Assembly (NCBI GenBank): GCA_965205485.1
Contig: OZ242180.1
Span: forward strand, 3,424,001-3,488,000
Direction: 5' to 3'
Length of the DNA: 64,000 nucleotides
Source: Candidatus Latescibacterota bacterium
GTDB taxonomy: Bacteria; Latescibacterota; UBA2968; GCA-2709665
Position 1 is the stretch's first letter. Each line of letters starts with the position of its first letter. The notes beneath the pieces were generated by a model. It made no database searches. It was not told the origin of the DNA and saw only the letters and a list, made by a program, of their open reading frames with translations. The position numbers and the translations under genes were made by a program. Below are positions 73 through 61,932 of this stretch, in pieces.

Positions 73-1167
73 ATGAAATCTACCAGACATCTATGGCCCA
101 TGTTGGCGGTTTTGTTTGTGGCATCGGACGCCAAGGCCAATGGCTTCGCCATGGGTCATCGTCACGTTCCAATAGTCGTAGACGTTGACGCAACCCTTTA
201 CACCGGTGAAACCGTGCGCTTGCGAGCTGGACAACCCATCTACCTTGACGACAGATCCCGGACCTATTATCGCGAAATTCCTGTCGAGTTACCGTCAGGC
301 GCACTGCCGGCATCACTCGATGGATACCGTCTTTATAGACAAAAGTCCTTGAAACGGAGCGCCGCTCTTCTTTCGTTGGAGGCCTCAGAGGAGACAAATC
401 CGATTGCGAGGACATGGCTATATCTCCTGGCCGGGCACTCATACGTAATAGCTGGCGGTTCTGCCGACAAGAGAGCAAATGAGGCGTACCATAAGGGATC
501 TGAACCGCCGCTAAACGTTTACAGTCCATACGGTCTATTCTTCAACGCAAAGCTTCTCGCAGTCAATCGGGACTATCGAGGGGCCAAGCGGATTCTGCAG
601 CGAATCCTGGAGAGATTTGGCGAGGGCGCAATTGATGCAGTTAGATCGACGCAACGTGTCAAACTATTTACAACCTATACTCATGGATCTGCCATAACCG
701 AGGGATATTTTAGCGGATTTCGCGGTCTTGACTGGTCTATCCAGGTCTTGGATAGGCTACTTGATGCACAGCAGAAATACCAAACGGTCGATCAAGGGAT
801 TGAGGCTGCGGATAGGCCGCAGGTCTGCTTTGATTACGCGACGGCTGTTGAAGATTTGTGGAAGTACTTCCCTCCGAAAGAATTCTTTGGATTTAAAAAG
901 CCCGATGAACCAGAGGAGGTGCTTCGACGTATTGTCACAGAATATCCTGCGTCGGACGTGGCACCGTTGGCCTACTTCCGGCTCCTGACTTACTACGAGG
1001 CCCCTTATGAATTCAACGGGGACGACGTTGCCAGATACCGATTCGAATTTCGCCAGATGACGAAGTTTTTGTCGAAGTATCCGGACAGCAAGCTAAGCGA
1101 TGACGCTCGGCAGAGACTGGCCGAGGCGGAGAAGTTCCTGAAGGACAGCGGAAATCCGCCAAGGTAG
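73..1167 (+). CDS. Secreted protein with C-terminal TPR/BamD-like helical repeats
   Basis: GGAGA RBS before ATG 73; signal-peptide-like N-terminus; EYPASDVAPLA and KYPDSKLSDDA motifs typical of BamD/TPR repeats. Confidence 0.6.
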   Translation: MKSTRHLWPMLAVLFVASDAKANGFAMGHRHVPIVVDVDATLYTGETVRLRAGQPIYLDDRSRTYYREIPVELPSGALPASLDGYRLYRQKSLKRSAALLSLEASEETNPIARTWLYLLAGHSYVIAGGSADKRANEAYHKGSEPPLNVYSPYGLFFNAKLLAVNRDYRGAKRILQRILERFGEGAIDAVRSTQRVKLFTTYTHGSAITEGYFSGFRGLDWSIQVLDRLLDAQQKYQTVDQGIEAADRPQVCFDYATAVEDLWKYFPPKEFFGFKKPDEPEEVLRRIVTEYPASDVAPLAYFRLLTYYEAPYEFNGDDVARYRFEFRQMTKFLSKYPDSKLSDDARQRLAEAEKFLKDSGNPPR

Positions 1168-1419
1168 TCGAAACGAGTCGCCCGGGCGGCAAATCCAGCT
1201 AACACGCCGGGCTTCGGCTCCCGCGAAATGGCGCCTCCAAACGTGGCCGGCCTATCACAGTAACGGCGCCAGCGCCACAATTGCCCTCCTGGGCTTCGTC
1301 TTGATAAGGGCGCAAGCGTTTAGCGCGGCAGGCTGCGGTTCCGGCTCATTCGGCAGTCTCACGAGAGGCGGGAACGGTAGAGGCCCTGCGAAGTGGACCG
1401 AGCCGGGGGACGGGTTTAA

Positions 1420-1998
1420 ATGAGATTCTCAGTCGTCAGCAGCAGTCTCGATGCCCGCAGTCGCAGCAGGGTGCTTGCCTCCATGTGTCGTACCGCCCTG
1501 GAGGACAAGGGGCATGCTGTCGACTTCATCAATCTTCGACAACTCGATCCACCGAATTTCGACGATGACGAGATCTATTCGTCCGAGGTTTACCAATCGT
1601 GCCACAGGATCATTGCGGCAGCCGACGCAATCATATTGGCCAGTCCGGTATACAACTGGGCGTGCTGCGCGGAGCTCAAGAAATTCGTCGAATATATGGG
1701 TTCTACGCCGCCAGGCGGATCGCTCAGAGGCGCTTTCTATGACAAGGTCGTGATGTTTGTCAATTCGGCCAGCTATCCGCACAGCTATATGGCGTTCGCT
1801 TCTCTCGCAACCTCCCTGATGCTTGATTTCAAGTGCATTGTCAGCCCCTACAATGTCTATGCGCACGGCGACAATTGGGGTGAGGGAGGCGAACTCGACG
1901 ACGCGACGACGTCCAGATTGGACAAGTCACTATCTGTACTGATTGAGCTTGCGGAGCGACTCAAGAGCCGATCATACGTGTCGAACTGGGAAATCTGA
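1420..1998 (+). CDS. NAD(P)H-dependent FMN reductase (flavodoxin-like fold)
   Basis: SSSLDARSRS N-terminal loop; ADAIILASPVYNW...ELKKFVE motif. Confidence 0.85.
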   Translation: MRFSVVSSSLDARSRSRVLASMCRTALEDKGHAVDFINLRQLDPPNFDDDEIYSSEVYQSCHRIIAAADAIILASPVYNWACCAELKKFVEYMGSTPPGGSLRGAFYDKVVMFVNSASYPHSYMAFASLATSLMLDFKCIVSPYNVYAHGDNWGEGGELDDATTSRLDKSLSVLIELAERLKSRSYVSNWEI

Positions 1999-2025
1999 CT
2001 CCAACTACAAACGGAAGGATCATCA

Positions 2026-3084
2026 ATGCCTCGCCATGACATTCATTGTCGTTTCTTTTCACAGGAAGACCTCCTTGCCGCAGGATGCCTGGACATCCGG
2101 ATGGCGATGGACGCTGCCGAATCGGCTATTCGTGCATTTGACAAAGGAGACGTTCTCTTTCCTGACAAGATCGTGCAGATCTTCAACGATGAAACCCAGG
2201 AGAGAATCAACTGCCTGCCGGCGACGTTCAAGGATAAGGAAATTTGCGGCATGAAGTGGGTGTCGGTCTTTCCACCGAATCCGGTTAAACATGGGATTCA
2301 GAATCTCTCGGCAGTGATCATCCTGTCCGAGATCGTCCATGGATTCCCGATCGCGTTCATGGAAGGCACGCTGTGTTCCAACATTCGAGTTGGGAGCATC
2401 GGCGCACTGGCCGCCAGATACCTGGCCCGTCAGGACGCAACATCGATCGGATTTATCGGCGCCGGTGAACAGGCAAAGATGCATTTGATCGCGATGAAGA
2501 CTGCCATACCGTCACTGAAGACGTGTCGTGTGGCCGCGAAGCTGGGTGCCGAGGAAGAACAGTTTACCAAGGAAATGTCTGCAATCGTTCCCGATATGGA
2601 TTTTTCGATCGCGAATTCAGACCTCGAACGTGCCATTGACGGAGCGGACATCATTGTCACGGCAACCAGTGCACAGGCGCCGCTGCTTAAGGCGGACTGG
2701 ATGAAACCCGGTGCTTTCTACAGTCACATTGGTGGCTGGGAAGATGAATACAACGTGGCGAAACTTTGCGATAAGATTGTATGCGATGACTGGGAGACCG
2801 TGAAACATAGAACACAGACGCTCAGTCGTATGTACAAGGAAGGCTTGCTGGCGGATGACGACTTGTACGCGAATCTCGTGGAATTGGTCCGTGGTACGAA
2901 GCCGGGGAGGGAGAACGACGACGAAAGAATCTATTTTAACGCGGTGGGTCTGGCCTACGTTGACGTCGGGATCGCCATTGCCATGTATGAGAGAGCCCTC
3001 GAAGCCGGCCTGGGACAGGATCTGCAAATTCAGCGCGAGATGATATTCGAGCATGCAGACCTCAAAGACTGGGTACGACTATGA
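2026..3084 (+). CDS. Ornithine cyclodeaminase/mu-crystallin family protein
   Basis: GMKWVSVFPPN, IGFIGAGEQA Rossmann motif, ADIIVTAT, GREND..FNAVGLAYVDV; AAGGA RBS. Confidence 0.9.
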   Translation: MPRHDIHCRFFSQEDLLAAGCLDIRMAMDAAESAIRAFDKGDVLFPDKIVQIFNDETQERINCLPATFKDKEICGMKWVSVFPPNPVKHGIQNLSAVIILSEIVHGFPIAFMEGTLCSNIRVGSIGALAARYLARQDATSIGFIGAGEQAKMHLIAMKTAIPSLKTCRVAAKLGAEEEQFTKEMSAIVPDMDFSIANSDLERAIDGADIIVTATSAQAPLLKADWMKPGAFYSHIGGWEDEYNVAKLCDKIVCDDWETVKHRTQTLSRMYKEGLLADDDLYANLVELVRGTKPGRENDDERIYFNAVGLAYVDVGIAIAMYERALEAGLGQDLQIQREMIFEHADLKDWVRL

Positions 3085-3622
3085 CCAATGCCTCCACGTG
3101 CGAAGGCCAGGAGAGATCATCATATAACAATCGCATGCGCAGGAACCGCGGATTCTGCAGCGACTGATTAATCTCAACTCTACAAAGACAACCGTCAATT
3201 TACCACAAAAAGCACAAAAGGCACAGAAAGTGACGGTGCAAAAACGGGGTCTTGAGGTCGTTGAGAGGGATGAAATCTCCCTTCACGTCCAGTGACCTCA
3301 AGTATGCGGGACATTTGACGTCAATTCGCCTTTGTTCTTCTGTATATATTCGACATTCAGGTCCCCGAATAATAGTGAATCAAGGCTAAGACGGCATCAC
3401 GGGGCCCCTGATGCTGGTCAATGGAGTCGACCGATACCGAATGAGATCCCCGCTGGAAAGTTTGTCCGGTGGGGATTCTGCACGGTGTCCGCTACCCGGC
3501 GCTTGCGTTCACCCCACAGGCATGGGCCGCAAGCGGCGAAGGATTCAGTTGAAATGGCGATAACCGGTCCGGGCAGTGATTGTCTCTCCCAAACAGGGCA
3601 GAATAGATCGGAGGTGTTCCTG

Positions 3623-4288
3623 GTGGATCTGAAATCGCAATCGTACCGCAGGCAGATGATCGAATACTATGACGGCGCCAAATATTCTTACGACTGGGAC
3701 GGCGTGCGGCAATCCTACATTGACGATGAAGCCAACTTGAGCGTCGAACAGAGACGCACAATTGAACAGATCCAGCGGGTGTTTTCCGGTCGTAAGGTGC
3801 TGGAACTCGCAGCTGGAGGGGGGCGATGGACGAAACACATCGCGCAAACAGCTGAATCGGTTTTAGCAACGGACACGTCTGAACAGGTGCTGGCAATCGG
3901 ACGTAGTTTGGTGAAGGCGGCGAATGTGAGGTTCGTCCAATCTGACGCATTCGATTTAGGCCAGCTAGACGAGCGTTTCGATGCTGCATTTCACTTCAAC
4001 TTCATCAATCATCTGTCGTACTCTGATTGGCCCCGTCTGGTGGAGAGCCTTCACAGAAAACTTACTCGCGGAGCTGTGGTTGTCATGGGGGGCCAACGAT
4101 ACCGGGCTCCTGAGAGCGACGACGGGATTGACTACTACTCAGACCGCGAGTGTTCCAATGGCAAACGCTATCGGCTCATCGACAATCTGCCGGATGAGGA
4201 CCAGGTGAAATTCGTGATCGGACATCTGGTTGAAGATATGGAGTTTACGATGGACAATCGCTGGTGGACAAAGTACACTGTTCCCTGA
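3623..4288 (+). CDS. Class I SAM-dependent methyltransferase
   Basis: VLELAAGGGRWT motif I; GGAGGT RBS before GTG 3623. Confidence 0.85.
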   Translation: MDLKSQSYRRQMIEYYDGAKYSYDWDGVRQSYIDDEANLSVEQRRTIEQIQRVFSGRKVLELAAGGGRWTKHIAQTAESVLATDTSEQVLAIGRSLVKAANVRFVQSDAFDLGQLDERFDAAFHFNFINHLSYSDWPRLVESLHRKLTRGAVVVMGGQRYRAPESDDGIDYYSDRECSNGKRYRLIDNLPDEDQVKFVIGHLVEDMEFTMDNRWWTKYTVP

Positions 4289-4369
4289 AATCCGGACGGG
4301 AGCAGGGTACACAGCTTTAACAGACACATCCGCCCACAGATTCAGATCTGATTCTGTCCCATTCGTCTT

Positions 4370-4394
4370 GTAGGGGCGCCCCTTGTGGGCGCCC
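4370..4394 (+). repeat. REP family 1 (GTAG-type) GTAGGGGCGCCCCTTGTGGGCGCCC
   Basis: GTAG plus imperfect palindrome; other copies at 25004 (+), 51134 (-), 54921 (-); partial or degenerate copies at 4963 and 49752. Confidence 0.85.
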
Positions 4395-4426
4395 GGCCTC
4401 CGGCTAACCGGCGGCAGGGGAATTCG

Positions 4427-9186: not shown

Positions 9187-9423
9187 CCAATCACTCCCCC
9201 CTTGAGGGGGAGTCGCAGAAGCCGAGCCGGTCCCTGAGCCGCTGTCCTGAGCCTGTCGAAGGATTGTCGAAGGGCCCGGCGAATGGTCGAAGGCGCCTGC
9301 GACGGCTGATGCGGTGGGGGGATGTCAACGTCTTAACGAATACAAACAGCATGAATTGACAGGCGCGCATTTTGCGTTTTCGACAACACACTTTCCCTGA
9401 TTACAGACCTGTAGACGTTCAGG
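9187..9423 (+). mobile_element. Composite MITE/REP element A, copy 1 (5'-truncated)
   Basis: ACTCCCCC(C)TTGAGGGGGAGT palindrome + CGCAGAAGCCGAGCCG + nested CCTGAGCCTGTCGAAGG units + GACGGCTGATGCGGTGGGGG; matches copies at 27583, 34211, 63626. Confidence 0.85.
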
Positions 9424-9832: not shown

Positions 9833-10270
9833 ATGAGTCATCCAATTTACCGAGTCGTTTCGTTCGAGATTGTCGGGCCCTATCGGATTCATGTCCGATT
9901 TAACGATCAGACGACTCAGGATATCGATTTTCGACCAGTACTTGAGGGCGAGTTGTTCGGACCTCTGGTGGACGAAGTGCTATTTAATCAGGTGCGCATC
10001 GATTCTGAAGTGCATACACTCGTCTGGCCTCAGCAGCCCGTTGAAAGAGCCCATCCGGGCTACGGCCGGCCCTTGCGGTCGAAATACTACGTTGCGCTCC
10101 CTCGCCGAATCGAGGGATGGGACTCGGTCGCGCGCCTTGTCTTCGACCACAATGGCTCGGCCTCGCCTGCAGAGCGACTTTATCAACGGACTGCTAATGG
10201 CGCTGACTTCGATCCTGCCACGCTTGACCAGGATTCGTATGTTTTCGTGGACGATAAACCGAATATGTGA
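9833..10270 (+). pseudogene. DUF2442 family protein interrupted by an in-frame 165-bp MITE, with its 3' end replaced by a repeat
   Basis: YRIHVRFND..IDF..LEGELFGPL..FNQVRID..TLVWP / NGADFDPATL split by 55 extra codons. Confidence 0.8.
10031..10195. mobile_element. 165-bp MITE with terminal inverted repeats
   Basis: Ends AGCAGCCCGTTGA ... TCAACGGACTGCT; internal hairpin TTGCGGTCGAA/TTCGACCACAA; removal restores WP-NGAD. Confidence 0.8.
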
Positions 10271-10333
10271 AAGTTGATAAAGGCGATTAGACTGCTGATT
10301 ACCAGGATACACCCGGTCACTGGACGTGAACGG
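10227..10333 (+). repeat. ~100-bp dispersed repeat B, copy 1
   Basis: ACCAGGATTCGTATGTTTTCGTGG...AAGTTGATAAAGGCGATTA...GATTACCAGGATACACC shared with 25471-25570. Confidence 0.85.
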
Positions 10334-10568
10334 AAAAATTGTCCTTCCTTACGACTATTTCGGTCCGTTTCGGAAAGTTTCGTCGCGGTGCCGCGTTGCG
10401 GTTTTCGCGAAACTTAGGTTGACGATTGGCCGGTTCACGAGGAAGAATTGAGGAGAATGGCCGGGCGTTGGTCGGATGCGCTGACAGCAAATGAACGAGG
10501 ATAACCAGGGCGCGGTTGTTGCAATTTAAACTCTACCGTGATCCGGCAGACCTCCACATCGGTTGACA

Positions 10569-10642: not shown

Positions 10643-11083
10643 ATGAAAACCCGCCACAGAGCCTACGCGTATATCACGAGTGGGAGCCGGCTGCTTCTAT
10701 TTACGCAACCCGGAGCGCCGGATGCCGGCATTCAGGTTCCCGCAGGCACGATCGAGCCTGGTGAGAATCCTCGGGATGCGGTGATGCGAGAAGCAAGAGA
10801 GGAGACGGGATTGACCGGGCTCAGATATGTGCGGTTCCTTGCGCGGGATACAATGGACATGAGGTTTTGCGGGAGCGATGAACTGCAACATCGCTGGTTC
10901 TACCATCTGTCTGTGGAAGGACCAACGGAAGAAACCTGGCGTCACGGGGAATATGGCGAGGACGGATCTCTCATCCATCCGTTCGACTTCTTCTGGGCCG
11001 GCGTCGGGGCACTTCCCGAGCTCGTCTATGGATACGACGACAAGATTGACCTGCTGATGGAGTCGATGGAAACACACAAGTAG
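10643..11083 (+). CDS. NUDIX hydrolase
   Basis: PAGTIEPGENPRDAVMREAREETGL Nudix box. Confidence 0.9.
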   Translation: MKTRHRAYAYITSGSRLLLFTQPGAPDAGIQVPAGTIEPGENPRDAVMREAREETGLTGLRYVRFLARDTMDMRFCGSDELQHRWFYHLSVEGPTEETWRHGEYGEDGSLIHPFDFFWAGVGALPELVYGYDDKIDLLMESMETHK

Positions 11084-11209: not shown

Positions 11210-11581
11210 ATGGAACTGATTCGTTCCTCGGACATCCAGGTGTTCAGCAATTCCGGAATTGAATCTCGACAACTGCTGTTTCCAGAGAACTCATCGTCGC
11301 AAAGGGTTACGATTACACAGGTCTCTGTCCCTCCTGGCGGCAAGAATCCGCCGCATCGACATAACGCATCGGAACAGATATGGATCGCCTTACAAGGTTC
11401 AGGAAATCTGCTTCTGGAAAACGGGGAGATAGCGGAATTCGCTGAAGGTGACGTTGTTCGGTTTGAGGAAGGTGACCTTCACGGGTTCTTCAATTCCGGA
11501 ACCCAGACCTTTGTCTACATGTCAGTTACATCACCACCGTTGAATTTTCGTGCGGCCTACGACAGTCACTGGTCGAGGTGA
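11210..11581 (+). CDS. Cupin domain protein
   Basis: HRHNASEQ...G and LHGFFN cupin motifs. Confidence 0.9.
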   Translation: MELIRSSDIQVFSNSGIESRQLLFPENSSSQRVTITQVSVPPGGKNPPHRHNASEQIWIALQGSGNLLLENGEIAEFAEGDVVRFEEGDLHGFFNSGTQTFVYMSVTSPPLNFRAAYDSHWSR

Positions 11582-11606
11582 TTGTCGGACCATTCTCTCC
11601 TTGCTT

Positions 11607-12566
11607 ATGACTGCTCCAAAACCACTCCTTACATACCAGGAATTCGTCGATTATGATCTTTCGCTTCCAATCGCGCAGGCCACTTGTTTAAAGGCCGGCA
11701 TCCCGGAACCGACCTCGATCCGACGATTGAAGCTCGGCGAGGTGAACGCGATCTTCGTGCTTGAGTTGCCCGGTGGTGCCTTGGTTGTTCTGAAGGTCTG
11801 GGTCAGATGCTCGGACGACGAGGTAATGCGAAGGGAAGAGGGGGTTATCAAAGTTGTCCAGCGCGTATCTGCAGTGCCCACGCCAGGCTGGATCTACGTC
11901 TCATCCGGTGACTCCATTCTCGCATATCCCCATGCTCTCATAGAATTCGCGAGTGGCGTCGATGGCGACCGGGTTTGGCGTGAGATAGGTTTCGAAGACA
12001 GGGAGAAAATCCTCACGCAATGTGCGTCTCAAATGCATGACCTCCACTCAATTCCTGTCGGTCCGGATACCGCCGCCATTCTCGGAGACCCGATGAGCGG
12101 AAGCGAGTGGCGGGAGTCTGAGGAGAACCGTTTCCAGCGGGCAATTGGGGACCTCCGGAAGCAAGGCTGGCTGGGAAAAGACACCCTTGATCGATGCACG
12201 GCGCTCTGGACCGACCATTCCGGTTCATTGGAAGCCGTGGAAGTTGATGCCCTTGTCCACTATGACTTTCAGTTGCATAATCTTCGTATAGACCCGGCGA
12301 CCCTGAATCTGCTGGCGGTTCTGGATTTTGGTAATGCGGCGCTTGCACCGGCATTCGCCGACTCCAGGGATTTGTATCTGAGCGTTTTCCTCAAATCGCC
12401 GGAACTGGCTGAATGCTTCTGGCGGACTTATGGAACGCTGAGTACCGAACTGGAACTGGTCCTGAGGCTTCACTCCGTTGCGAGGGTGTTGGAAATTCTC
12501 GCCGCGTACCAGGGTCCGACTCCGGGAGGTTGGGACCGGACAACCGTGCTGAAACTTCTCGAATAG
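11607..12566 (+). CDS. APH/choline kinase-like phosphotransferase
   Basis: LVHYDFQLHNL Brenner motif; VLDFG. Confidence 0.85.
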   Translation: MTAPKPLLTYQEFVDYDLSLPIAQATCLKAGIPEPTSIRRLKLGEVNAIFVLELPGGALVVLKVWVRCSDDEVMRREEGVIKVVQRVSAVPTPGWIYVSSGDSILAYPHALIEFASGVDGDRVWREIGFEDREKILTQCASQMHDLHSIPVGPDTAAILGDPMSGSEWRESEENRFQRAIGDLRKQGWLGKDTLDRCTALWTDHSGSLEAVEVDALVHYDFQLHNLRIDPATLNLLAVLDFGNAALAPAFADSRDLYLSVFLKSPELAECFWRTYGTLSTELELVLRLHSVARVLEILAAYQGPTPGGWDRTTVLKLLE

Positions 12567-15809: not shown

Positions 15810-16075
15810 AATGCAGGACGACGATCGCTTCTTCCGTCATCTCTTCTGAAAAACCAACGCGGCTCTTTAAACGAGCACCCCCCAGGGCACAGTTGCCTGG
15901 TCTCGAGGTGCAACCGATACGCGGGATCGCGGGCACCGAGAACGTCACATGCCTTTCGCAGGGCTCTCTTCGTCATGACTGAAAGTCATATTCGCATAGC
16001 TCCGGTGGGTTGGCGGTTGGCATGGACGCTCAAGCGATGTCTGCGTGAGTTGTTGGGGAACAGGATATTCGCGAG

Positions 16076-16906: not shown

Positions 16907-17035
16907 ACATTCGGGTCGTGAGATTTGCGATGACTTGACCCTCGGAGGTTCGCGGACCACGAGGGCGTTAGATGCCAGGTGTCTGAGCTCCACGGCGTGA
17001 GAAGACGAATACTCTGAGAAAGGATCCTCGACCCT

Positions 17036-19671: not shown

Positions 19672-19854
19672 AACCGCACCCCTTGTTGGGACGCATTCGA
19701 CCGAATGGCTGGGTACAAATGAAACCAAGTATGTTCAATCAGACGCAGAGTATTCCACATCCTGCCGCGCAGCAATTTGAGCTCCGCGCCTGTCGGCGCC
19801 TGGCCCTCGGCAACCCACATTCGCAGGTTTGCAAACTGGCGTGATGTTATTCCT

Positions 19855-22803: not shown

Positions 22804-22984
22804 TAGGCCGGTGAGCCTTTGCCAAAAATAAAACCGGTGTTGACACCTTGGCGGTACTTTGCTGGAGACAACATCCTCGCGCCCGGTTCGGCGCATGGGT
22901 GCCCTCTCCCAATCGTTTCTCGATTCGGGACATCGAACCGTAAATTCCAGGGCAATGTCTATCCTGATACGGGAAGCAATCATA

Positions 22985-23797
22985 ATGGTTAACACAGACC
23001 TGCCAGTGATTACACGAAGCAGATTGGTGTCTGATCTGTCGAGCCTGGGGCTTGTCTCGGGCGACACGGTGATGTTGCATGCTTCCGTCAGGGCGGTCGG
23101 CTGGATCGTTGGGGGGCCTGACATGGTACTTCGGGCGATCCTGTACGTGATCGGTTCAACGGGAACCTTGATGATGTACATCAAGTGCGAGGATCCATTG
23201 AACGAAATTGACGATTGGCCGGAGGACTGGCAGAAAGCCTATCTGGCAGAGTGTCCACCGTTCGATCCGTACCGGACTCGCGCCAATCGTCGATGGAGCA
23301 TCCTTACGGAGTACCTGCGCACGTGGCCCGAGGTCCGATGCAGCGACCATCCCGAGGCGCGGGTGGCGGCAGTCGGGGCAAAGGCGGAATGGATAACGGC
23401 AGACCATCCGTTGCAATTCGGCTATGGCGCAGGTTCCCCGCTTGAGAAGTTGTGTGACGTTGGGGGGAAGGTTCTGTTGCTGGGGCCGCTCTTTGATAGC
23501 CTGACCATACTTCACTACGCGGAGCATCTGGCCGCCATACCCGATAAGAGAACCGAGCGCTATCGTTGGCCAGTGTTGCGAGATGGCAGGCGCGAATGGA
23601 TCGGGTTCGAACAGTTCGATACGTCCAGCGGAATCGTTGACCGGCTCCACGGTGACTATTTCCAGCGCATAGTAGTAGAATTTCTCGATCACGGAAGCGT
23701 CGCGCGGTCGAAGGTTGGCGCCGCGGACTCGTATCTGTTCCATGCAAGGGACCTGGCGGACTTTGCCATCGAATGGCTGGAGAGAAAACTCGGCTAG
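22985..23797 (+). CDS. Aminoglycoside 3-N-acetyltransferase family (AAC(3)) protein
   Basis: MLHASVRAVGWIVGG, PPFDP, EYLRTWP, SDHP, GYGAGSPL, TILHYAE. Confidence 0.88.
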   Translation: MVNTDLPVITRSRLVSDLSSLGLVSGDTVMLHASVRAVGWIVGGPDMVLRAILYVIGSTGTLMMYIKCEDPLNEIDDWPEDWQKAYLAECPPFDPYRTRANRRWSILTEYLRTWPEVRCSDHPEARVAAVGAKAEWITADHPLQFGYGAGSPLEKLCDVGGKVLLLGPLFDSLTILHYAEHLAAIPDKRTERYRWPVLRDGRREWIGFEQFDTSSGIVDRLHGDYFQRIVVEFLDHGSVARSKVGAADSYLFHARDLADFAIEWLERKLG

Positions 23798-24940: not shown

Positions 24941-25003
24941 AAGTTGTTGCAGTCGACACGCCCCGACGCCCTCCCACAGCCCTGACTGACTCTCCGTAGC
25001 ATT

Positions 25004-25028
25004 GTAGGGGCGTCCCTTGTGGGCGCCC
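25004..25028 (+). repeat. REP family 1 copy
   Basis: GTAGGGGCGTCCCTTGTGGGCGCCC. Confidence 0.85.
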
Positions 25029-25060
25029 GCCAAACGCAGTTTTAACTCACGAGGTGAACC

Positions 25061-25471
25061 ATGAAGTCCAAGCTGAAGAACGTCCTGGCAGTCATCGTCG
25101 GTGTTGTTGTCGGCAGTATCGCGAATATGATTCTGGTCACGGTAGGGCCTTATGTCATTCCACCTCCCGATGGCGTCGACGTGACCGACGTGGAATCCAT
25201 TAAGGCTTCGATGCATCTTTTTGAGTTCAGACATTTCATCTTCCCGTTCCTGGCACATGCACTGGGGACCCTTGTGGGCGCATATCTGGCCGCCCTCATC
25301 GCCGCAAGCTACAGGATGGCAGTGGCGATGGTGGTGGGTGGATTCTTCCTGATCGGCGGCATCGCGAACACTTTCATGATAGGGGGACCTGTCCTGTTTA
25401 CGGTCGTGGACCTGGTTGGCGCGTACATACCGATGGCCTGGATAGGCGGAAGATTGAGCGGCAGAAACTAA
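25061..25471 (+). CDS. Small 4-TM membrane protein
   Basis: GAGGT RBS; four hydrophobic segments. Confidence 0.8.
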   Translation: MKSKLKNVLAVIVGVVVGSIANMILVTVGPYVIPPPDGVDVTDVESIKASMHLFEFRHFIFPFLAHALGTLVGAYLAALIAASYRMAVAMVVGGFFLIGGIANTFMIGGPVLFTVVDLVGAYIPMAWIGGRLSGRN

Positions 25472-25570
25472 CCAGGATTCGTATGTTTTCGTGGCGGTTA
25501 AATCGAATATATACAAGTTGATAAAGGCGATTAAACTGCGGATTACCAGGATACACCGGGACGTGAATGG
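25471..25570 (+). repeat. ~100-bp dispersed repeat B, copy 2
   Basis: Similar to 10227-10333; begins at the TAA stop of the upstream gene. Confidence 0.85.
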
Positions 25571-26368: not shown

Positions 26369-26570
26369 TGGTCATTGCCAGTGCTGAGCTTGTCGAAGCA
26401 AGCTTGTCGAAATGCCCGCGTTTCACTATTCGCAAGGGGCCAATCGACATTTCTTCGCCGACCCTTCGACCCTTCGACAGGCTCAGAGACCACAGGCTCA
26501 GGGAGCGGCTCAGGGCTGACGCGCTGATATCTGAGCCAGTCGAAGGCGCCGTCCTGAGCTTGTCGAAGGA
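26369..26570. repeat. Cluster of REP family 4 units (CTGAGCTTGTCGAAG / CTTCGACAGGCTCAG)
   Basis: Multiple direct and inverted copies of the motif. Confidence 0.8.
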
Positions 26571-26631
26571 ATGCGAGCGGGGCGACTCGACAGGTGAATT
26601 CACGCAACTATTCCTGGGAAAGCACACAGAT

Positions 26632-27830: not shown

Positions 27831-27934
27831 TTTCTCTTGAAACGCTCTGGCATGGCTATGACGCCGCGATCCCGGTTCGTGAACGGCAGGGACATGGTCG
27901 AATACTAATTTCGGCATTGACGGGAACGCAGACG

Positions 27935-28615
27935 ATGGGCCCAAAGACTGACGACCATGGATGGGGAGATGAAGTCAAGCCGCGCTCGGGTCACAGCGGT
28001 CGCGCCGGTATCGACAGAATATTAAAAGAGGTACGGCGAGGTGATTTGAGTGCAGTAAAACGGCACCTCGAGCGTGATCCGTCGCTGCTGCAGGCGAAAA
28101 GCGGCGGGCACAATCGGACGTTTCTGTGGGAAGCGACGCGCGGCAACCGGATAAATGTCGTGCGGTTTTTGTTGCGGGCGGGAGCGGATCCCAATGTCCC
28201 GGGTCGGACTCGTGCGGAGATACCGGTGCTCCTGAAGCCCTATTGTATCGCGCGGCGCTATCGCAGGCCCGAAATCGCTGACCTGCTGGCTAAAGCGGGT
28301 TCCGTCATGGATATCTATTCGGCGTGTTTCCTGGGGGACGTGGACCGCGTGAAGCAGTGCCTGCAAGCAGATCCGCGTCTGCTGACCGAAGAACAGGACG
28401 ACGACTCCGTCTGGCGCGTGACCCCATTGCACTATGCGGTGACTGGAGGCCACGAGCAACTCAGCCGGTGGTTGATCAGCGAGGGCGCGCTCGTGAAGCC
28501 GTATACACGGTTGTTGTGCGATGCGGCCGTAAGGATGAAACACGCGCACCTGCTACCCGTTCTGGAAGAGGGTGGCGCCGATCCTGAACTGCTCGAGAAC
28601 TGGGGCGAAATTTGA
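27935..28615 (+). CDS. Ankyrin repeat protein
   Basis: VVRFLLRAGADPN and TPLHYAVTGGH. Confidence 0.85.
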   Translation: MGPKTDDHGWGDEVKPRSGHSGRAGIDRILKEVRRGDLSAVKRHLERDPSLLQAKSGGHNRTFLWEATRGNRINVVRFLLRAGADPNVPGRTRAEIPVLLKPYCIARRYRRPEIADLLAKAGSVMDIYSACFLGDVDRVKQCLQADPRLLTEEQDDDSVWRVTPLHYAVTGGHEQLSRWLISEGALVKPYTRLLCDAAVRMKHAHLLPVLEEGGADPELLENWGEI

Positions 28616-28693: not shown

Positions 28694-29500
28694 TTGTCAG
28701 ATCCCCTTCATTTCGTCCACATCAGCGACACACACTTGGGACACAAGAGAGATTGGGTCGCTCTGGGCAACCACCCTTTCCGAAATCTGCTGCAGGTCCT
28801 TGATGCGATCGATAGCCTTCCGACCCGGCCTCGATTCATAATTCATACCGGCGACGTCGCGAATCATGACACGGAAGTCGCATACGAGTTGGCTGCCGAA
28901 GCATTCTCGCAGGTCGCAATTCCGATGTACTTCGTCACAGGAAACCATGATACCCGCGATTATATGCGCAAACATCTGTCGATGGGGCCCAGAGAGGATG
29001 TCCTGTCCGATTCAGATCTGAACTGTTATCGATTCTCCATTGAAGGCGAGCGGTTTCTGGTTCTGGATTCGAAACAGCCTTACGATGAAGCCGGCCACTT
29101 TGGCAAGGTGACGGAAGACCAGCTGGATTTCGTTCGAACGGAGGTTGGCCGGCACAACGGGTCATTGACTGTCTTCATTCATCATTCGCCGCTCGATATG
29201 GATTCCAGGTGGTACTCCAAATACGTGGGAATGCTGAATGGTTCGGAACTACATGAAGCGTTGTTGCCGGCAAGAGATCGAGTCCGGGGCGTTTTCTTCG
29301 GACACGTTCATCGTGGGACCCACATACACAAGGACGGCATCGCGTACATCAGCGTTGGAAGCACATTCTGCCAGCTGAACTATTGGCCCGATGAACAGAA
29401 AGTGAACTTTGACGAAAAGCATCCGCCGTGCTTCAACTTTGTCACCCTCCATGCGGACAGAACAATCGTCAAGGAGCACACGGTCGCTCCGGACGAATAG
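28694..29500 (+). CDS. Metallophosphoesterase (CpdA/Icc-like)
   Basis: HISDTH, HTGDV, GNHD, HH, GHVH; GGAGG RBS and TTG start. Confidence 0.9.
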   Translation: MSDPLHFVHISDTHLGHKRDWVALGNHPFRNLLQVLDAIDSLPTRPRFIIHTGDVANHDTEVAYELAAEAFSQVAIPMYFVTGNHDTRDYMRKHLSMGPREDVLSDSDLNCYRFSIEGERFLVLDSKQPYDEAGHFGKVTEDQLDFVRTEVGRHNGSLTVFIHHSPLDMDSRWYSKYVGMLNGSELHEALLPARDRVRGVFFGHVHRGTHIHKDGIAYISVGSTFCQLNYWPDEQKVNFDEKHPPCFNFVTLHADRTIVKEHTVAPDE

Positions 29501-33961: not shown

Positions 33962-34299
33962 TGAGGTATCTCTCTCTGGCAAAGGTGATCGAACTTCACA
34001 GACGCGTTGTTGATCAAAGTTGCGGAGCACCGGGGTTGCGCGATACAAGCAGATTAGAGTCGGCCGTTGCGCAACCCCGAATTTCTTTTGAGGGGCGGGA
34101 TCTATATCCTTCGCTGATCGAGAAAGCAGGCGCATTATGCTTTTCCCTGGTGCAGAACCATCCGTTTGTCGACGGGAACAAGAGATTGGGCCATGCAGCG
34201 ATGGAACGTACCCTGGCGCGCTTCGCTATACTCAGCCGTAACCAGGTAGGTGGAAGTGAACACGCGAGATCGCCTAACGGTTCAATCACTCCCCCTTGA
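33961..34299 (+). pseudogene. doc: Doc/Fic toxin with 3' end replaced by element A
   Basis: HPFVDGNKR Fic motif; sequence from about 34211 is repeat element A. Confidence 0.85.
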
Positions 34300-34471
34300 G
34301 GGGGAGTCGCAGAAGCCGAGCCGTCCCCTGAGCACTTGCCCTGAGCTTGTCGAAGGGGCAGGCGACGGCTGATGCGGTGGGGGATTTCAACGCATTACCG
34401 TATTCAAGCAGCACGGCTAAACATGCAGGCATCTTGTATAGAAGCCCTGTTGTAAAGATCTGACGTTCAGG
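34211..34471 (+). mobile_element. Composite MITE/REP element A, copy 3
   Basis: Same palindrome and arms as the other copies. Confidence 0.85.
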
Positions 34472-47040: not shown

Positions 47041-48111
47041 ATGTCGTTAGAGCACGCGGATCCGGATAACTCGCCGCCGGAAGACTCTGCAGTTCTTGAA
47101 GCCATCCTGATTGGGCCTCAACTTGAACGTTTCTGTGACGAGTTCGGGCTGACGCCTGGAGAGCTCGAACCCGACTTCACCGGATGGTCCAAGCACATCA
47201 TCAAGTCTCCGGATCATGTCTTTCTGTTTCCAAGACATCCAAAATACCAGTGTTCTCTGAATGTCGAGTTGGAACTATACAGGCTCTTCAGCGAACTGGA
47301 TCAATTGCCCGTGCCCAGGCACGTAAGGGCGGTCGAGAACCGCGAATTGAGCCCGTACCGGTTCGGCGTTGTCACGCGGCTGCACGGGATCCTGCTCGGA
47401 AACATCGAACACAGGTTAGGCGCAAGCGACTATGAGGAATTGCTTCGCACGATCGGACGGCTCACGGCGATCTGGCACAACCTTGATTTGGGTCATAAAA
47501 CTGATTTCCTGAAACCACTGTCTCAGGATATGGACGGCGATCATGGCGACTCGTATCGATGGCTGTATGGGGCGCTGCGTTCGGGTTTGCCGGGCGAAGC
47601 ACCGGATTTAATCGCTTCATCGGTCCGCGAATTGGCTGCAGGAGGCGGCACGGAGGATTTCGGTGACCTGAACTCCGCCTCGACGATAGACCAGTGGCAG
47701 AGGGCGTTGTCAGAATTGGCGGGGATGGACGACGTGCTGCTTCATGGCGATATCCACGAAGACCAGATTCTCGTCCGTTCCGAACGGGACCTGGAAGTAA
47801 CCGGGATCCTGGACTGGGGAAACGCAGGTTTCGGGAATCCCGCCCTTGAGTTCAACTTCGGAGAATGGGGCGCTGAGATCTGGCGTTACCGGGATAGATT
47901 CGGCACGTTTAGAGAGGTAATCTGGCGGGAGTACCTTCACGCACTGGGACTTGACGGACCGTCGTGGGAGGCCATACACATCCTTTACACCCTGCAGGAA
48001 CTCATCTGGACGATGACTGCGCGAAAGCCCATCGGAAACGAAGGTGGATCGTACGAGTCCGAAATGCGAAGGCTGCTTCGGATATTGAGAGAGACGACAG
48101 AAATGCTTTGA
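47041..48111 (+). CDS. APH-family phosphotransferase
   Basis: LLHGDIHEDQIL, GILDWG. Confidence 0.85.
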   Translation: MSLEHADPDNSPPEDSAVLEAILIGPQLERFCDEFGLTPGELEPDFTGWSKHIIKSPDHVFLFPRHPKYQCSLNVELELYRLFSELDQLPVPRHVRAVENRELSPYRFGVVTRLHGILLGNIEHRLGASDYEELLRTIGRLTAIWHNLDLGHKTDFLKPLSQDMDGDHGDSYRWLYGALRSGLPGEAPDLIASSVRELAAGGGTEDFGDLNSASTIDQWQRALSELAGMDDVLLHGDIHEDQILVRSERDLEVTGILDWGNAGFGNPALEFNFGEWGAEIWRYRDRFGTFREVIWREYLHALGLDGPSWEAIHILYTLQELIWTMTARKPIGNEGGSYESEMRRLLRILRETTEML

Positions 48112-54914: not shown

Positions 54915-54920
54915 AACGCC

Positions 54921-55595: not shown

Positions 55596-56147
55596 ATGTC
55601 TGAGAATATAACGCGCGGGAGTACGGAAGATCCGAATCCTGTCCAGCTTGGACTGATCCGGGAAATTCATGAAGCATTGACAGCGCGTTCCATCCCGCAC
55701 TGGTTGGGCGGGGGTTGGGCGTTGGATTTTCTGCTGGGGGAAATCACGCGCGTACACGGCGACGTCGATTGGGCAATATGGAAGTCAGATGCGCCGGATG
55801 TGACCGTTCGTCTCGGATCCCTGGGGTATTCCCGCCAGCAAGTCCGGCATCCTGAAGAACACATCGGGTTTTACAAACGCGATCAGTATGTCAGTTTTGG
55901 GCTGCTCGAGAAGACTTTGTCCGGGGATGTGGTTACATCCGGCCGTTGGACCGATTGGCCCTATCCGCATAGCGCCTTTTGTGCGCCGGAGGGACGGCTG
56001 GGTGACTTATCCTGCCCGATCCTCAGCGCTGAGGCCCAACTGGACGAAAAGGTCAACTTTCACAAGCACCCTGCCGGCGCGCCACTTAGAGAAGAGGATA
56101 TTCCTGCGATCGAGAGGCTGCGCAGGTACATTGCGGGTCGCCGGTGA
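55596..56147 (+). CDS. ANT(2'')/Lnu-like nucleotidyltransferase
   Basis: WLGGGWALDFLLGEITRVHGDVD. Confidence 0.85.
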   Translation: MSENITRGSTEDPNPVQLGLIREIHEALTARSIPHWLGGGWALDFLLGEITRVHGDVDWAIWKSDAPDVTVRLGSLGYSRQQVRHPEEHIGFYKRDQYVSFGLLEKTLSGDVVTSGRWTDWPYPHSAFCAPEGRLGDLSCPILSAEAQLDEKVNFHKHPAGAPLREEDIPAIERLRRYIAGRR

Positions 56148-57671: not shown

Positions 57672-57705
57672 CATCCCAAAACTTCAGCGCAGGGAGGGGC
57701 GCAGC

Positions 57706-58068
57706 ATGCAAAAGGTTCAGGGATTCGGCGGATTCTTCTTTCGGGCAAAGGACCCGGATCGCCTCACGAAGTGGTATCACGATCATCTCGGCATCAATCC
57801 TGCTCCGACGAACATGGAGATGACGCCATGGGTGACCGGGTCCGGGGTCACGGTCTTCTCACCTTTCGATGATGACACGGACTATTTCGCAGCGGATAAG
57901 TCTTTCATGCTGAATTTCCGCGTGGCCGATTTGGACGCGATGATCACACAACTGAAGTCCGCCGATATTGAGGTGAGCCACGAAAGCGAGATGGAGGGCA
58001 TCGGCCGCTTCGCCCGCATCCACGACCCCGAAGGAAATGCGATCGAGCTTTGGGAACCCGCATCGTGA
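57706..58068 (+). CDS. VOC family protein
   Basis: GGFFFRAKDP, LNFRVADLD, DPEGNAIELWEP. Confidence 0.92.
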   Translation: MQKVQGFGGFFFRAKDPDRLTKWYHDHLGINPAPTNMEMTPWVTGSGVTVFSPFDDDTDYFAADKSFMLNFRVADLDAMITQLKSADIEVSHESEMEGIGRFARIHDPEGNAIELWEPAS

Positions 58069-58121
58069 GATGAAAGCCTATGCTGGTCGGCGCGACGTCG
58101 CGTGAGAAAGCCGGAACCTAC

Positions 58122-58454
58122 ATGCCTGAATTCATCACCTTCAAACGCTGGTCCCTCAGAGACGGGCGTGAGGAGTCTGAACTCTTCAGGCTTGTCCGAG
58201 AGGAGATCATTCCTCACTACGAGAAACTTCCGGGCTGTCTCCGCCTGGGATTGTTGCAAATTGCAGGTACCCGTTCCTACCTTGCTCTTCAACACTGGAA
58301 GAATCGCGACACCTGGCGCGCAACTGTCGAGTCCGACGACTATGAATCCTGGTTTCAAGCGTACGCGCCAATGCTCGAGCGCTGGGACGAATTAATGATC
58401 TTTGAAGAAGAATGGGAGAGTGAAGACGTGCTAAACATCGGGAGCGGCGCCTGA
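58122..58454 (+). CDS. ABM-like (dimeric alpha/beta barrel) protein
   Basis: LPGC..YLALQHW pattern; about 110 aa. Confidence 0.55.
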   Translation: MPEFITFKRWSLRDGREESELFRLVREEIIPHYEKLPGCLRLGLLQIAGTRSYLALQHWKNRDTWRATVESDDYESWFQAYAPMLERWDELMIFEEEWESEDVLNIGSGA

Positions 58455-58472
58455 CAGCGATGTATACCAGCG

Positions 58473-59057
58473 ATGACCATACATCAATTCGGAAATGAAG
58501 TCCTTGACGTCCTTCGGAGGCATCTGGGGCCGGGAAACGTCAACTTCCGCGGTTCATTTGCCTCAGGGAAGGTTGATGATTACAGCGACGTTGACCTCGA
58601 GGCCAGGGTCCATGTTGAGCTCACGCAGGGGTTTTTCGATTCCTTATCGGCGTGTCTGAAGAAGCATTTCGGAGCATTCTCCGTACGGTTTGATCCGCAA
58701 CAGAAGGGCGACCGGATGGCGCAGAACATAATGGTCAATCTTCATGAATATCCTTTGTTCTGGAGGATTGAACTCAATATCAAGTCGGACCAAGACACTT
58801 CTCAGAAATGGCCTTTGCCGTTTCCGGACTGGTGTGTCGCCACGTCCGCGTTCTGGAACGTCGTCTGGGCGGTAAAGCGAGCCAGGCGGGGCGAGTGTGA
58901 TGCCGGTCACTACGTGTTCAACGCATGCGAGAAACTGGGTCGCCCCGGTCTGGCGTATTCAGTTGAGAACGTTGAGATTTTGCTTTCGGAATTGTGTGAG
59001 TTTCACGACGTTGACAGGGTTCTCGTGTCGAGACTCCGCAACGAAATCACGCGCTGA
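58473..59057 (+). CDS. Nucleotidyltransferase domain protein
   Basis: RGSFASGKVDDYSDVDL. Confidence 0.8.
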   Translation: MTIHQFGNEVLDVLRRHLGPGNVNFRGSFASGKVDDYSDVDLEARVHVELTQGFFDSLSACLKKHFGAFSVRFDPQQKGDRMAQNIMVNLHEYPLFWRIELNIKSDQDTSQKWPLPFPDWCVATSAFWNVVWAVKRARRGECDAGHYVFNACEKLGRPGLAYSVENVEILLSELCEFHDVDRVLVSRLRNEITR

Positions 59058-59067
59058 GGACCGGTAG

Positions 59068-59869
59068 ATGGTTTCTGTCCTGGAAGACGATTCGGATCCT
59101 GCTATCATTGCTGCGATTGAGCGGAACAACATCGATCTTTTCCTCTTTGCGGCTACCATGGGGCAAAAGACGATACTGCGGGAAGAAGACTTCACCGGGG
59201 TCATTGGCAAGCCGTGGTGGCCGAACTATCTGGTCGAACCGTGTTTCAGGGAAGAAAACCTCGAAAGCCGAATCCGCGAGATCCGCGAAGGTATCGAGCA
59301 GAGGAAGCTGCCGCCGCTCCTGAAGTTCGGCCCGAGCGCGGCGCCGAAGAATCTGAGGACCCGTCTCCTGAACAGCGGGTTCGTAGCGATGGATCACAAT
59401 CCGCCGGGAATGGCGATGCGATTGGATGGTTTGGGCGAGGAGCGTCCAATACCACTCGACCTCAGGATAGAACGCGTGGGTGATGACGCCGGACTTCGCG
59501 AATGGTTGTCCTTTTTCACGCTGTTCGAATTCGATATGTTCAAAGTTCTCATGGATTTGCCCGAAGTGAGGCTCTATCTGGGGAGGATCGACGGTAAAGC
59601 GATCGGGACTTCGATGATGTTTCTCTCATGCGGGCGTTGCCGGGCTGTATCAAGTGGAAGTTTTGCCGGAACAACGGAGGCGGGGAATCGGGACCGCGAT
59701 GACGCTTTCGCCGATGGAGGACGCATGTCAACTGGGGTACCGGACCGCCGTCCTGCAGGCGTCGAAATTGGGGGAACCGGTGTACCGGAAGATCGGTTTC
59801 AAGTCGTACTTCAGGTACAATTATTGCCATCCGAAAGGATGTACGTTTGCGAGATTCATGGCCGCGTGA
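59068..59869 (+). pseudogene. GNAT acetyltransferase with frameshift near 59632
   Basis: Acetyl-CoA motif VLPEQRRRGIG..LQAS..YRKIGF lies in the shifted frame. Confidence 0.8.
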
Positions 59870-59948
59870 GAATTATCGCTGAGAAAACCAATAGAAATGA
59901 TCTCGTTTACCACACCTGAAACTGACAAATGAAAGGGGTAATTTCGCG

Positions 59949-60332
59949 ATGAAAATCATACTCAATGGCGTTTTCGTTGAAGATCAGGACAAGGCTCTGA
60001 AGTTCTATACCGAGACGCTGGGCTTCGTCAAAAAGCACGATGTGCCTGTTGGAGAATTCAGGTGGCTGACAGTCGTCTCACCCGGCGACCAGGAAGGCAC
60101 TGAGCTTCTGCTCGAGCCGAACGAGAATCCGGTAGCGAAGACATATCAGAAAGGGATATTCGAACAGGGTATTGCTGCGACCTGCTTCGGCGTAGACGAT
60201 ATCCGCGCAGAGCATGAGCGACTAAGCGCGCTCGGCGTGAAGTTTACGTTGGCGCCGACCGAGTGGGAGGACATCATCATGGCCATTTTTGACGATACCT
60301 GCGGAAATCTCATTCAGATCATGCAGCGGTAG
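59949..60332 (+). CDS. VOC family protein
   Basis: VEDQDKALKFYTETLGF, FDDTCGNLIQ. Confidence 0.93.
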   Translation: MKIILNGVFVEDQDKALKFYTETLGFVKKHDVPVGEFRWLTVVSPGDQEGTELLLEPNENPVAKTYQKGIFEQGIAATCFGVDDIRAEHERLSALGVKFTLAPTEWEDIIMAIFDDTCGNLIQIMQR

Positions 60333-60365
60333 AGCCTGGACCACGAAGCATCTCGCTCAACGTCA

Positions 60366-60515
60366 CTCAGGATGACATGTTGCCCCTCAAATCTCCATGA
60401 AGTGTCTCAGAGACACTCGTACATGAGCTGTCCTCCTGAGGACTTGCCCTGAGCGTGCTTGCATTGAGCTTGTCGAAATGTCGAAGGGTGCCGTCATGCT
60501 GACGAGGGATCTCCT
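60366..60515. repeat. TGTCATCCTGAG-type REP with nested family 4 core
   Basis: CTCAGGATGACA at 60366; 60428-60515 is an inverted copy of 38695-38785. Confidence 0.8.
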
Positions 60516-60653
60516 GCTGCGAGGGATAATGTCCGGGGCTCAATTGGTCGCCACGACCCGACAGGCAGCACAAGGTCTCCATTTATTCGAGGTATTGGGT
60601 CCGGCGAGTACAGCCGCCTTGCAGAAACTGGCGGGCACGGATTAGAGGCGACC

Positions 60654-61427
60654 GTGGATACCTTTATTAAGTCAGGAACCAGGTTTCACATCGAGGTCGG
60701 GATATCGTCTATGCCCGGACTTGTACGATGGACGACCTGGGGAAATCACGACATTCAACAGTCCTATCTGCTCTCCGCACGCGATGGAGCAGTTCTTGTT
60801 GATCCGATACAGCCGATAGGCAGACAGGCTCTGAATGCCCTGAAAAAATACGCCGACGGTCGATTCCAGGCTGTAATCTGCACGAGTCCGAACCATGAAC
60901 GCGATGCTGAGTGGTTCCGCGAACGTTTCAGGATACCGGTATACGGCCCTGAGCCCGCTCCTGCCCGTTCCCGCATAAGACTGAAGTCGGATGTACTATA
61001 TCGAGATGGGGAAATCCTTCCCGGGAACATTCGAGCGATCTGGTCAGGGGATAGGCGAGGTGAGATGTGGCTGCATCGGGAGACCTTCAACGCATCCGGG
61101 GTTCTGATTTGCGCAGACTCGATTTACGGTCAGTCCCGGAGGGGAGGCTTCGACGGTGCGACCGTATCGTATTGGATGCGGGAGGGCGGCATTCGGCTGC
61201 AAATGGATGGGGACGTCGGTCGTGGCGAAATGAAGCGCCGGTTTGAACGTCTTGTCGATTTCGACTTTGAGATTGTCCTCAACGGTCACAACCCGCGTCC
61301 TATTGAGAATGCGAAATCCGCCCTCGAGACAGCGCTGACTCAGGGTGAATATGAGACGCATCCCAAGGGCGCATTCAGTGTTATAGAGGCAGAATTATCC
61401 TGTCCCGGCAGACATGACGAGTCGTGA
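60654..61427 (+). CDS. Metallo-beta-lactamase-fold-like protein (degenerate motif)
   Basis: VLVDP, TSPNHERD, CAD, NGH; start uncertain. Confidence 0.6.
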   Translation: MDTFIKSGTRFHIEVGISSMPGLVRWTTWGNHDIQQSYLLSARDGAVLVDPIQPIGRQALNALKKYADGRFQAVICTSPNHERDAEWFRERFRIPVYGPEPAPARSRIRLKSDVLYRDGEILPGNIRAIWSGDRRGEMWLHRETFNASGVLICADSIYGQSRRGGFDGATVSYWMREGGIRLQMDGDVGRGEMKRRFERLVDFDFEIVLNGHNPRPIENAKSALETALTQGEYETHPKGAFSVIEAELSCPGRHDES

Positions 61428-61932
61428 AACAGAAATCGATTCTGCTGTAATTCGTCGCGCCAGATCTGACGAAGCACCCAAACTCACCGCTCTGTCCCGC
61501 AGGTCCAAGGGATACTGGCGATATGATGATGCTTTCCTCTCGGCGTGCGAAAAAGAGCTATCGGTTTCTGAAGCAGAATTGGCGCACAATCCTGCATATG
61601 TGATCGAAGAATCCGGACGAGTAATCGGATTCTATATCCTCCAACCGCGCTCCACAAGCGATGTCGAGTTGACGTTTCTCTTTGTTGAGCCGGTTGAAAT
61701 CGGACGTGGAAACGGGGGACGTCTGATGCGTCATGCCATATCAACAGCATCAAACCTGGAATTCAGGACGATGCACATTCAAGGCGACCCGCATGCCGAC
61801 GGGTTCTATCTTGCAATGGGCGCCCGGAAGATCGGTACCAGACGTTCACAGAGCATTCCGGAACGCGAACTGCCTCTTTACAACATTGACCTGGACGTCA
61901 GGGAAGCGTCGTCTGATTTGCAGAGTGAGTGA
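61414..61932 (+). CDS. GNAT family N-acetyltransferase
   Basis: RSKGYWRY, LFVEP..GRGNG, DPHADGFY..MGA. Confidence 0.9.
   Translation: MTSRETEIDSAVIRRARSDEAPKLTALSRRSKGYWRYDDAFLSACEKELSVSEAELAHNPAYVIEESGRVIGFYILQPRSTSDVELTFLFVEPVEIGRGNGGRLMRHAISTASNLEFRTMHIQGDPHADGFYLAMGARKIGTRRSQSIPERELPLYNIDLDVREASSDLQSE

Follow-up and report, generated by a model that had tools for sequence, protein, structure and literature searches.

An old cassette array in a Candidatus Latescibacterota chromosome, probably built by a tyrosine recombinase without the integron-specific domain

Introduction

Long chromosomal runs of co-oriented one-gene cassettes are described from sedentary chromosomal integrons, such as the Vibrio super-integrons, and from clusters of attC sites lacking integron integrases (CALINs; Cury 2016, PMC4889954; Loot 2017, PMC5371416; both as far as their accessible text goes). 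Here we analyse a 64,000-nucleotide stretch (hereafter the window; G000:C1:3,424,001-3,488,000) of a Candidatus Latescibacterota genome, G000, a single contig of 5.13 Mb and 60% GC, and conclude, with a probability of roughly 85%, that the window belongs to a 180-kb chromosomal cassette array, of which it is the old central part, and that this array has no intact integrase and was likely built, cassette by cassette, by a tyrosine recombinase lacking the integron-specific domain. The array resembles super-integrons and CALINs in its long co-oriented cassettes, AAC...GTT cores, G|TT crossover and left cores that mirror the upstream right core. Its bottom strand is part of the template for the leading strand, and its orientation relative to replication fits that of large sedentary integrons in the accessible part of PMC5371416; G000 also has no IntI and has clustered site remnants, which would fit a CALIN-like array left by loss of an integrase. 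Unlike the Vibrio super-integrons, its integrase is without the ~35-residue IntI insertion, and its old cassettes have been stripped of their sites and now resemble core genes in behaviour. We do not regard the array as a canonical integron, since it is missing two defining features, the IntI insertion and canonical attC geometry.

Three other systems come close. In the ‘inverted-integrase’ integrons of Treponema and others (Cury 2016, PMC4889954, accessible part), the integrase is likewise co-oriented with the cassettes and the insertion site lies at its 3' end; those integrases were identified by an IntI-specific profile, whereas that domain is absent here, and a shorter relative of our enzyme also occurs in divergent layout (G066, G069, G070 and G071). 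The ‘integron-like’ tyrosine recombinase subgroup (Smyshlyaev 2021, PMC8138268) and NCBIfam NF040815 share its make-up of Phage_int_SAM_4 plus catalytic domain, but what is accessible of PMC8138268 gives insertion-less members no cassette role and treats the insertion as essential for integron function. IS91-associated tyrosine recombinases have the same domains, also lack the insertion and nest among site-associated enzymes, but adjoin an IS91 transposase. The insertion is treated as defining or essential in the accessible portions of PMC4889954, PMC9024848, PMC8138268, PMC5027507, PMC5371416 and bioRxiv 2022.02.06.479319, and our literature search, which left subscription papers largely uncovered, turned up no account of insertion-less enzymes that run cassette arrays.

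A recombinase remnant and an attI-like site head the array

Two adjoining features mark the 5' end of the array in G000.

L006:9266-9355 (genome 3,373,266-3,373,355, 50.7 kb upstream of the window), + strand: recombinase stub, the last codons of a tyrosine recombinase
L006:9356-9491, + strand: attI-like segment, a conserved stretch after the stop codon of the stub

Stub and attI-like segment are conserved in 7/7 aligned genomes, which diverge directly after TAGTTA (G|TTA); the predicted crossover in G000 lies between genome positions 3,373,484 and 3,373,485, ~50.5 kb upstream of the window. A co-oriented tyrosine recombinase gene stands at the array 5' end in the relatives G011 and G013, and just its last codons in G000, G006 and G014, while the attI-like site adjoins an insertion-less recombinase gene in two families. 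The original prediction, made from the letters of the window, reported no integrase and proposed a genome-wide search. For intact genes it was correct: PF00589 matches two genes only in G000, XerD-like and XerC-like by sequence and alignment, PF13495 finds none besides the XerC-like gene, and no IntI is present; the stub, however, lies upstream of the window. A crude scan for the cassette promoter Pc found no sigma-70-like match in the 600 nt around the attI-like site of G000.

At an E-value of 1e-45, the recombinase has matches in 25 of 132 genomes of the class. The full-length, long-form enzyme of G052 (376 aa; L124:1087-2217) retains R225, K250, H315, R318, H341 and Y350, and the IntI-specific insertion (~35 aa near patch III) is absent from it, with 37 columns missing relative to the IntI of G017. 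TIGR02249 matches the recombinase in two stretches, below its cut-off, and the G011 fragment falls under the cut-offs of both TIGR02249 and NF040815 (193.5 of 220; 190.9 of 265). The predicted structure (mean predicted local distance difference test, pLDDT, 87) matches VchIntIA (2A3V) best and archaeal XerA next. At least 2,782 homologues exist, with Dehalococcoidia and Clostridia among the sources of the named ones; in a plasmid search all homologues were <60% identical and several were annotated beside IS91. The N-terminal extension of the long form had no fold match at Z ≥5. A HARP-like role for this extension was rejected as unsupported, with PF07443, a HARP-like family, in 1/120 matches, and with short forms that also head arrays without the extension.

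Integrase 3' ends or attI-like copies also recur within arrays (G013 L033/L032, G011 L072, G014 L024, G009 and G012): the platform itself has been duplicated or re-inserted. Elsewhere, a true IntI, an insertion-less recombinase and an IS91 transposase directly follow one another twice in G017 (L120:13528-16960 and L103/L104), and in G016 (L172/L173) a short-form recombinase lies on the opposite strand inside an array, with same-strand sites on both sides.

attC-like sites decay into the window

The first cassettes of G009, G011, G013 and G014 end in TAAC...GTTA palindromes. When folded, five of seven sites tested gave z-scores of -3.5 to -6.4 for a bottom-strand hairpin with AAC/GTT cores, and the G000 site gave -1.4. 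A first profile (model R1) was built from 33 sites; since RNAalifold returned no consensus pairs, R1 scores sequence only and the geometry was derived by script instead. All 173 of its 173 matches in six relatives lie on the gene strand (seeds, which match by construction, included), 9 of 10 in G000 lie within the array island, and 65 of 105 class genomes are matched. A second profile, from 72 sites of relatives, placed 11 of its 16 matches in G000 in the array, all on the + strand; at ≥8 bits it had three matches in the window, all + and intergenic, and five in total on both strands of 20 control windows. Matches in G000 number 4, 4, 2 and 2 per 20 kb from the array 5' end and then 0, and in two relatives site clusters persist 140-160 kb into the array. 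The absence of an intact attC noted from the letters alone was borne out, in that a strict geometry scan found none in 200 kb of G000, but decayed remnants are present. An early hairpin scan with overly rigid geometry had returned few sites and no strand bias. The remnants in the window are:

1198..1330, + strand: decayed long-form attC-like site after the first gene (13.2 bits with R1, 12.2 bits with the second profile), of which G013 has a fuller two-ended copy
15909..15946, + strand: 3' half of an attC-like remnant (9.4 bits), intergenic
16942..16970, + strand: 3' end of a weak attC-like remnant (6.3 bits); in G009, a 14-bit site follows the upstream gene's orthologue
19776..19849, + strand: best attC-like remnant, with right core kept and left core gone (24.6 bits, E-value 1e-6 for the window; 19.6 bits with R1), and orthologous sites in G014 and G009
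22870..22930, + strand: weak attC-like remnant (6.5 bits), alone not significant

Far from the array, another site of this type, a strong one (53.6 bits), lies at G000:C1:1,782,438-1,782,517 (- strand; L175) with a partial one at 1,777,139-1,777,174 (- strand), in a small co-oriented cluster with 12/14 genes on one strand; this is a second integrase-less cluster.

A distinct site geometry beside many insertion-less enzymes

In a comparison of 96 sites, positions 2-3 of the left side pair with positions 6-7 of the right and 5-13 with 8-16, the latter at 57-73%, while left position 4 is unpaired and mostly T or A on the top strand. The best register, a net +3 offset with a bulge 4 nt after AAC, holds in 47 of the 96. 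These sites have spacers of 1 and 5 nt, and the base left unpaired is at position 11, where the bottom strand mostly carries A or T; canonical attC differs, with its G at position 16 (accessible text of PMC5027507).

One rival explanation is that a canonical IntI, since lost or acting from elsewhere, built the array, and that the insertion-less recombinase is a passenger or later replacement. IntI does occur in 13/132 class genomes, PMC8138268 and PMC4889954, in their accessible parts, call the insertion domain essential to the working of integrons, and G061 has a true IntI and 40 profile matches with no insertion-less enzyme found. Yet IntI is absent from G000, from 14/14 congeners and from 21/21 genomes of genus g6; regions adjacent to IntI in class genomes have 0 site-profile matches and canonical geometry; in two families the gene next to the attI-like site is the insertion-less one; and G070, G016, G066, G069 and G071, which are not among the IntI-positive genomes, carry sites beside the insertion-less gene. 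A scan that used cores and pairing only found the new register in 7/12 insertion-less regions versus 0/6 IntI regions, and seven canonical sites in IntI regions versus one in all insertion-less regions (that of G071). We consider this rival unlikely. Within G061, C2:5,233-31,503 and C3:310,508-312,370 hold clusters of short-spacer sites where only true IntI was found. The array shares no homology with a true IntI region of G017 that had been tried as its possible ancestor; the comparison with this region exposed the recombinase remnant at the array 5' end.

In G070, 48 profile matches lie beside a divergent short-form recombinase. At 80 metagenome loci with close kin of the recombinase, short-spacer sites accompany 12/43 recombinases without IS91 versus 1/37 with IS91, and shuffles give 0-1 sites. 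The sequence profile found 0 sites among the 73 of these 80 loci that were listed; since the metagenome sites emerge only from the sequence-free scan, the site sequence appears to be lineage-specific. Co-location and matching site geometry suggest that the insertion-less recombinase itself likely performs the reaction.

Cassette ends behave as insertion of circles predicts

Insertion of cassettes as circles predicts that the left core of a site mirrors the right core of the preceding one. This was observed in 18/37 intervals, against 1/37 for the site's own right core (shuffle mean 1.7, maximum 8), and in six other arrays in 26/39 intervals against 4/39 (shuffle maximum 8). Among 107 mapped ends, 20 pairs have the same cassette beginning at the same base (G|TT) behind upstream sites that differ; in six of these pairs attI is compared with attC.

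Homologues of genes from both the window and the 3' part of the array are site-flanked cassettes elsewhere. Those from the window are:

10643..11083, + strand: NUDIX gene; its homologue in G016 (81% identity) forms a cassette with a strong site on either side, and G011 and G013 have site-followed orthologues
28694..29500, + strand: metallophosphoesterase gene; its homologue in G070 (84% identity) forms a cassette with sites on either side
55596..56147, + strand: aminoglycoside-2''-adenylyltransferase-like gene; its homologue in G070 (75% identity) likewise forms a site-flanked cassette

Metagenome runs (4 of 24 listed) were compared with the G070 array: sponge and marine contigs from two studies join a G070-distal cassette to the attI-like site, ≤3 nt from the predicted crossover. 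In one contig, two G070 cassettes that are not neighbours meet at their cores. These contigs come from other strains or species, with 90% likeness to G070, and the joints show differing cassette orders, not present activity nor the enzyme responsible.

The window lies within a 179-kb co-oriented island

The array is an island of low GC content at third codon positions (GC3), 179 kb long, from ~3,373,485 to ~3,551,800 in G000, with a DNA polymerase B gene and a sulfite-oxidase-like gene at its flanks; the window is its middle, so that the original prediction, which confined the array to 73..61932, had set its limits too narrowly. Of the array genes ≥120 aa, 152/156 are on the + strand. The stretch first noticed and a minus-strand gene just beyond it are, in window coordinates:

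73..61932, + strand: the array's old middle, with 71 gene calls in one orientation (methyltransferases, GNAT, VOC, NUDIX, APH, AAC(3)-like genes, sulfotransferases and toxin-antitoxin modules), former cassettes under purifying selection
62084..63442, - strand: ankyrin-repeat gene, among only four minus-strand genes ≥120 aa of the array

From 100 to 61,932, 71/71 gene calls are on the + strand, confirming the co-orientation first noted, and none of eight long minus-strand open reading frames tested in the window has a Pfam match. By Pfam, the window has seven S-adenosylmethionine (SAM) methyltransferases, five VOC and three NUDIX genes, as first counted, five GNAT genes where six had been counted, HicB, Fic/Doc and two APH. 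No cassette repeat emerged when the window was scanned for direct repeats, tRNAs and Rfam families.

This orientation bears on a second rival, in which the locus is an ordinary gene-transfer hot spot, selection (for the leading strand or read-through transcription) co-orients its genes and only the 5' end was ever an integron. The + strand of the region is indeed leading, as the position of dnaA (1.663 Mb) and the GC-skew switch near 4.1 Mb indicate; remnants in G000 were not found beyond ~80 kb from the 5' end, and those listed of 78 indel junctions, in the old part of the array, have no common motif. The leading-strand gene fraction across G000 is, however, merely 0.59, so general strand bias does not explain the run, which settles the strand-bias check that had been proposed. 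Among 778 runs of 3,731 genes ≥100 aa, the run containing the window is the longest of G000 (87 genes, 3,398,090-3,485,932), with a runner-up of 41. Cassette homologues of window and 3'-part genes, the deep site clusters of two relatives and the finding that only two gene clusters occur on both strands, both transposase-like as read from the sequence, also stand against this rival, which we regard as highly improbable.

The same island was found by its flanks in congeners and is a conserved locus of this Candidatus Latescibacterota genus. In the six of 14 congener islands that were read, G006 only partly, 90-98% of genes lie on one strand, and the five whole ones span 170-241 kb. Congeners share 29-45 of 62 window genes, 25-44 of them collinear, and differ from G000 by many single-gene indels and relocations with the strand unchanged, the outcome expected for cassettes when the gene-order comparison was proposed. 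Conserved synteny had been named as a sign of an ordinary region; gene order is conserved, but it reflects an old, fixed array.

The ankyrin-repeat gene at 62084..63442 was likely inserted by a different route. Ankyrin-repeat genes also lie at window 27917-28615 and L008:13286-15871, and one cluster of them differs from cassette genes in lying on the minus strand of six genomes. A four-gene minus-strand block directly before the ankyrin gene (clusters 278-281), perhaps BREX-like by resemblance, is present in G014, G013, G009 and G011 and not in the G000 array. Former cassettes that resemble AAC(3), ANT(2''), APH, AadA and beta-lactamase families in sequence lie at window 22859-23797, 55596-56147, 11550-12566 and 47041-48111, L011:3170-3910 and L010:12626-13735. 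We rejected the idea that the DNA polymerase B gene at the flank marks a pipolin: the gene is in 35/41 genomes, and genus g6 arranges it differently relative to the right flank gene.

Spacer repeats are later occupants

A third rival credits the capture and orientation of the genes to repetitive extragenic palindromic (REP) or miniature inverted-repeat transposable (MITE) elements, helped by a RAYT-type transposase. As noted from the letters, REP-like repeats do occupy several spacers, and a ~195-bp non-coding element has 32 genome copies, seven in the array (1.1 expected) and six of these on one strand. The repeat families occur genome-wide where tested, with 20-50 copies each, and in both orientations within relatives' arrays, and no gene of the RAYT-type/Y1 transposase family PF01797 was found in G000 (97% complete); because of this genome-wide spread and the missing transposase, we interpret the repeats as later occupants and not as capture sites. 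Mappable cassette ends fall instead at G|TT, which largely refutes this rival, and we find it scarcely credible.

The ~195-bp element lies at window 10224-10420 and 25471-25560, with a copy at L006:9495-9695 just past the attI-like crossover. REP-like families lie in spacers at window 9190-9373, 34220-34435 and 63657-63883; 4365-4395 and 25000-25029; and 26453-26573 and 61951-62038.

Age and proposed history of the array

Synonymous divergence (dS) is 0.13-0.25 for 5' cassettes, 2-3 times below that of window genes (0.31-0.84), whose dS is near or above that of flanking genes (0.21-0.72), and the ratio of non-synonymous to synonymous divergence (dN/dS) of window genes is 0.14-0.18. From this gradient and the low dN/dS we infer that exchange has been recent at the 5' end, whereas the window has been inherited vertically under selection.

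Several observations weigh against a cassette array built by the insertion-less recombinase. Enzyme copies are broken by a frameshift in G011, a 5' truncation in G013, an internal deletion in G054 and an internal stop in G070, and the intact G052 enzyme has only one weak site on a short contig. Sites were not found near four of 12 insertion-less recombinases: G017, G117 (upstream side read), G065 and G020. Close kin of the recombinase adjoin IS91 transposases at 37 of the 80 metagenome loci, so membership of the family is alone no proof of cassettes, and in the tree the IS91-linked recombinases nest within the clade of site-associated enzymes. The tree admits insertion-less enzymes as sister or ancestor to IntI (approximately unbiased (AU) test, p = 0.31, 29 rows) and gives no order for the gain of the insertion; an ‘ancestral’ status of insertion-less enzymes is thus not established. 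Just 13/62 window genes have a site-followed orthologue in any of seven genomes; the motif-free indel junctions and the IntI and sites of G061, described above, belong to the same side of the balance.

The integrase stub, the attI-like site, the attC-like remnants with their decay gradient and the intact versions in relatives nevertheless uphold the first of two readings originally offered, a fossilised super-integron; the second, a different capture mechanism, is partly right in that integrase and site geometry are non-canonical. As judged from sequence, the locus behaves like a sedentary integron, now fossil in G000. Cassettes would have moved in circular form, each circle closed at a single-stranded, folded site, and been inserted at the attI-like site, with one-strand use of sites fixing their orientation and each new arrival shifting older cassettes downstream; the sites of old cassettes may then have eroded while useful genes were frozen in place, and the enzyme would finally have been lost in G000.

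Implications

Integron integrases are, by the accepted definition, those with the extra domain, which single-strand recombination is described as requiring. Tentatively, and with slightly less than even confidence, we propose a second, widespread integron class in which a recombinase without the IntI domain acts on folded single-stranded short-spacer sites, the IntI domain and canonical attC are later elaborations, and arrays can grow to 170-240 kb, finally becoming permanent accessory islands under selection that tools based on IntI and attC do not see. If true, a domain-less cassette system with a matching site shape would test the origin of integrons from Xer-like enzymes, and could explain integrase-less cassette clusters as well as the apparent absence of integrons in lineages that hold these enzymes (Clostridia and Dehalococcoidia among them). 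The locus presents a full life cycle in one genus, from 5' capture through exchange between species, site decay and selected fixation to enzyme loss, and ~3.5% of G000, including aminoglycoside-modifying-like and beta-lactamase-like genes, was likely gained by cassette capture.

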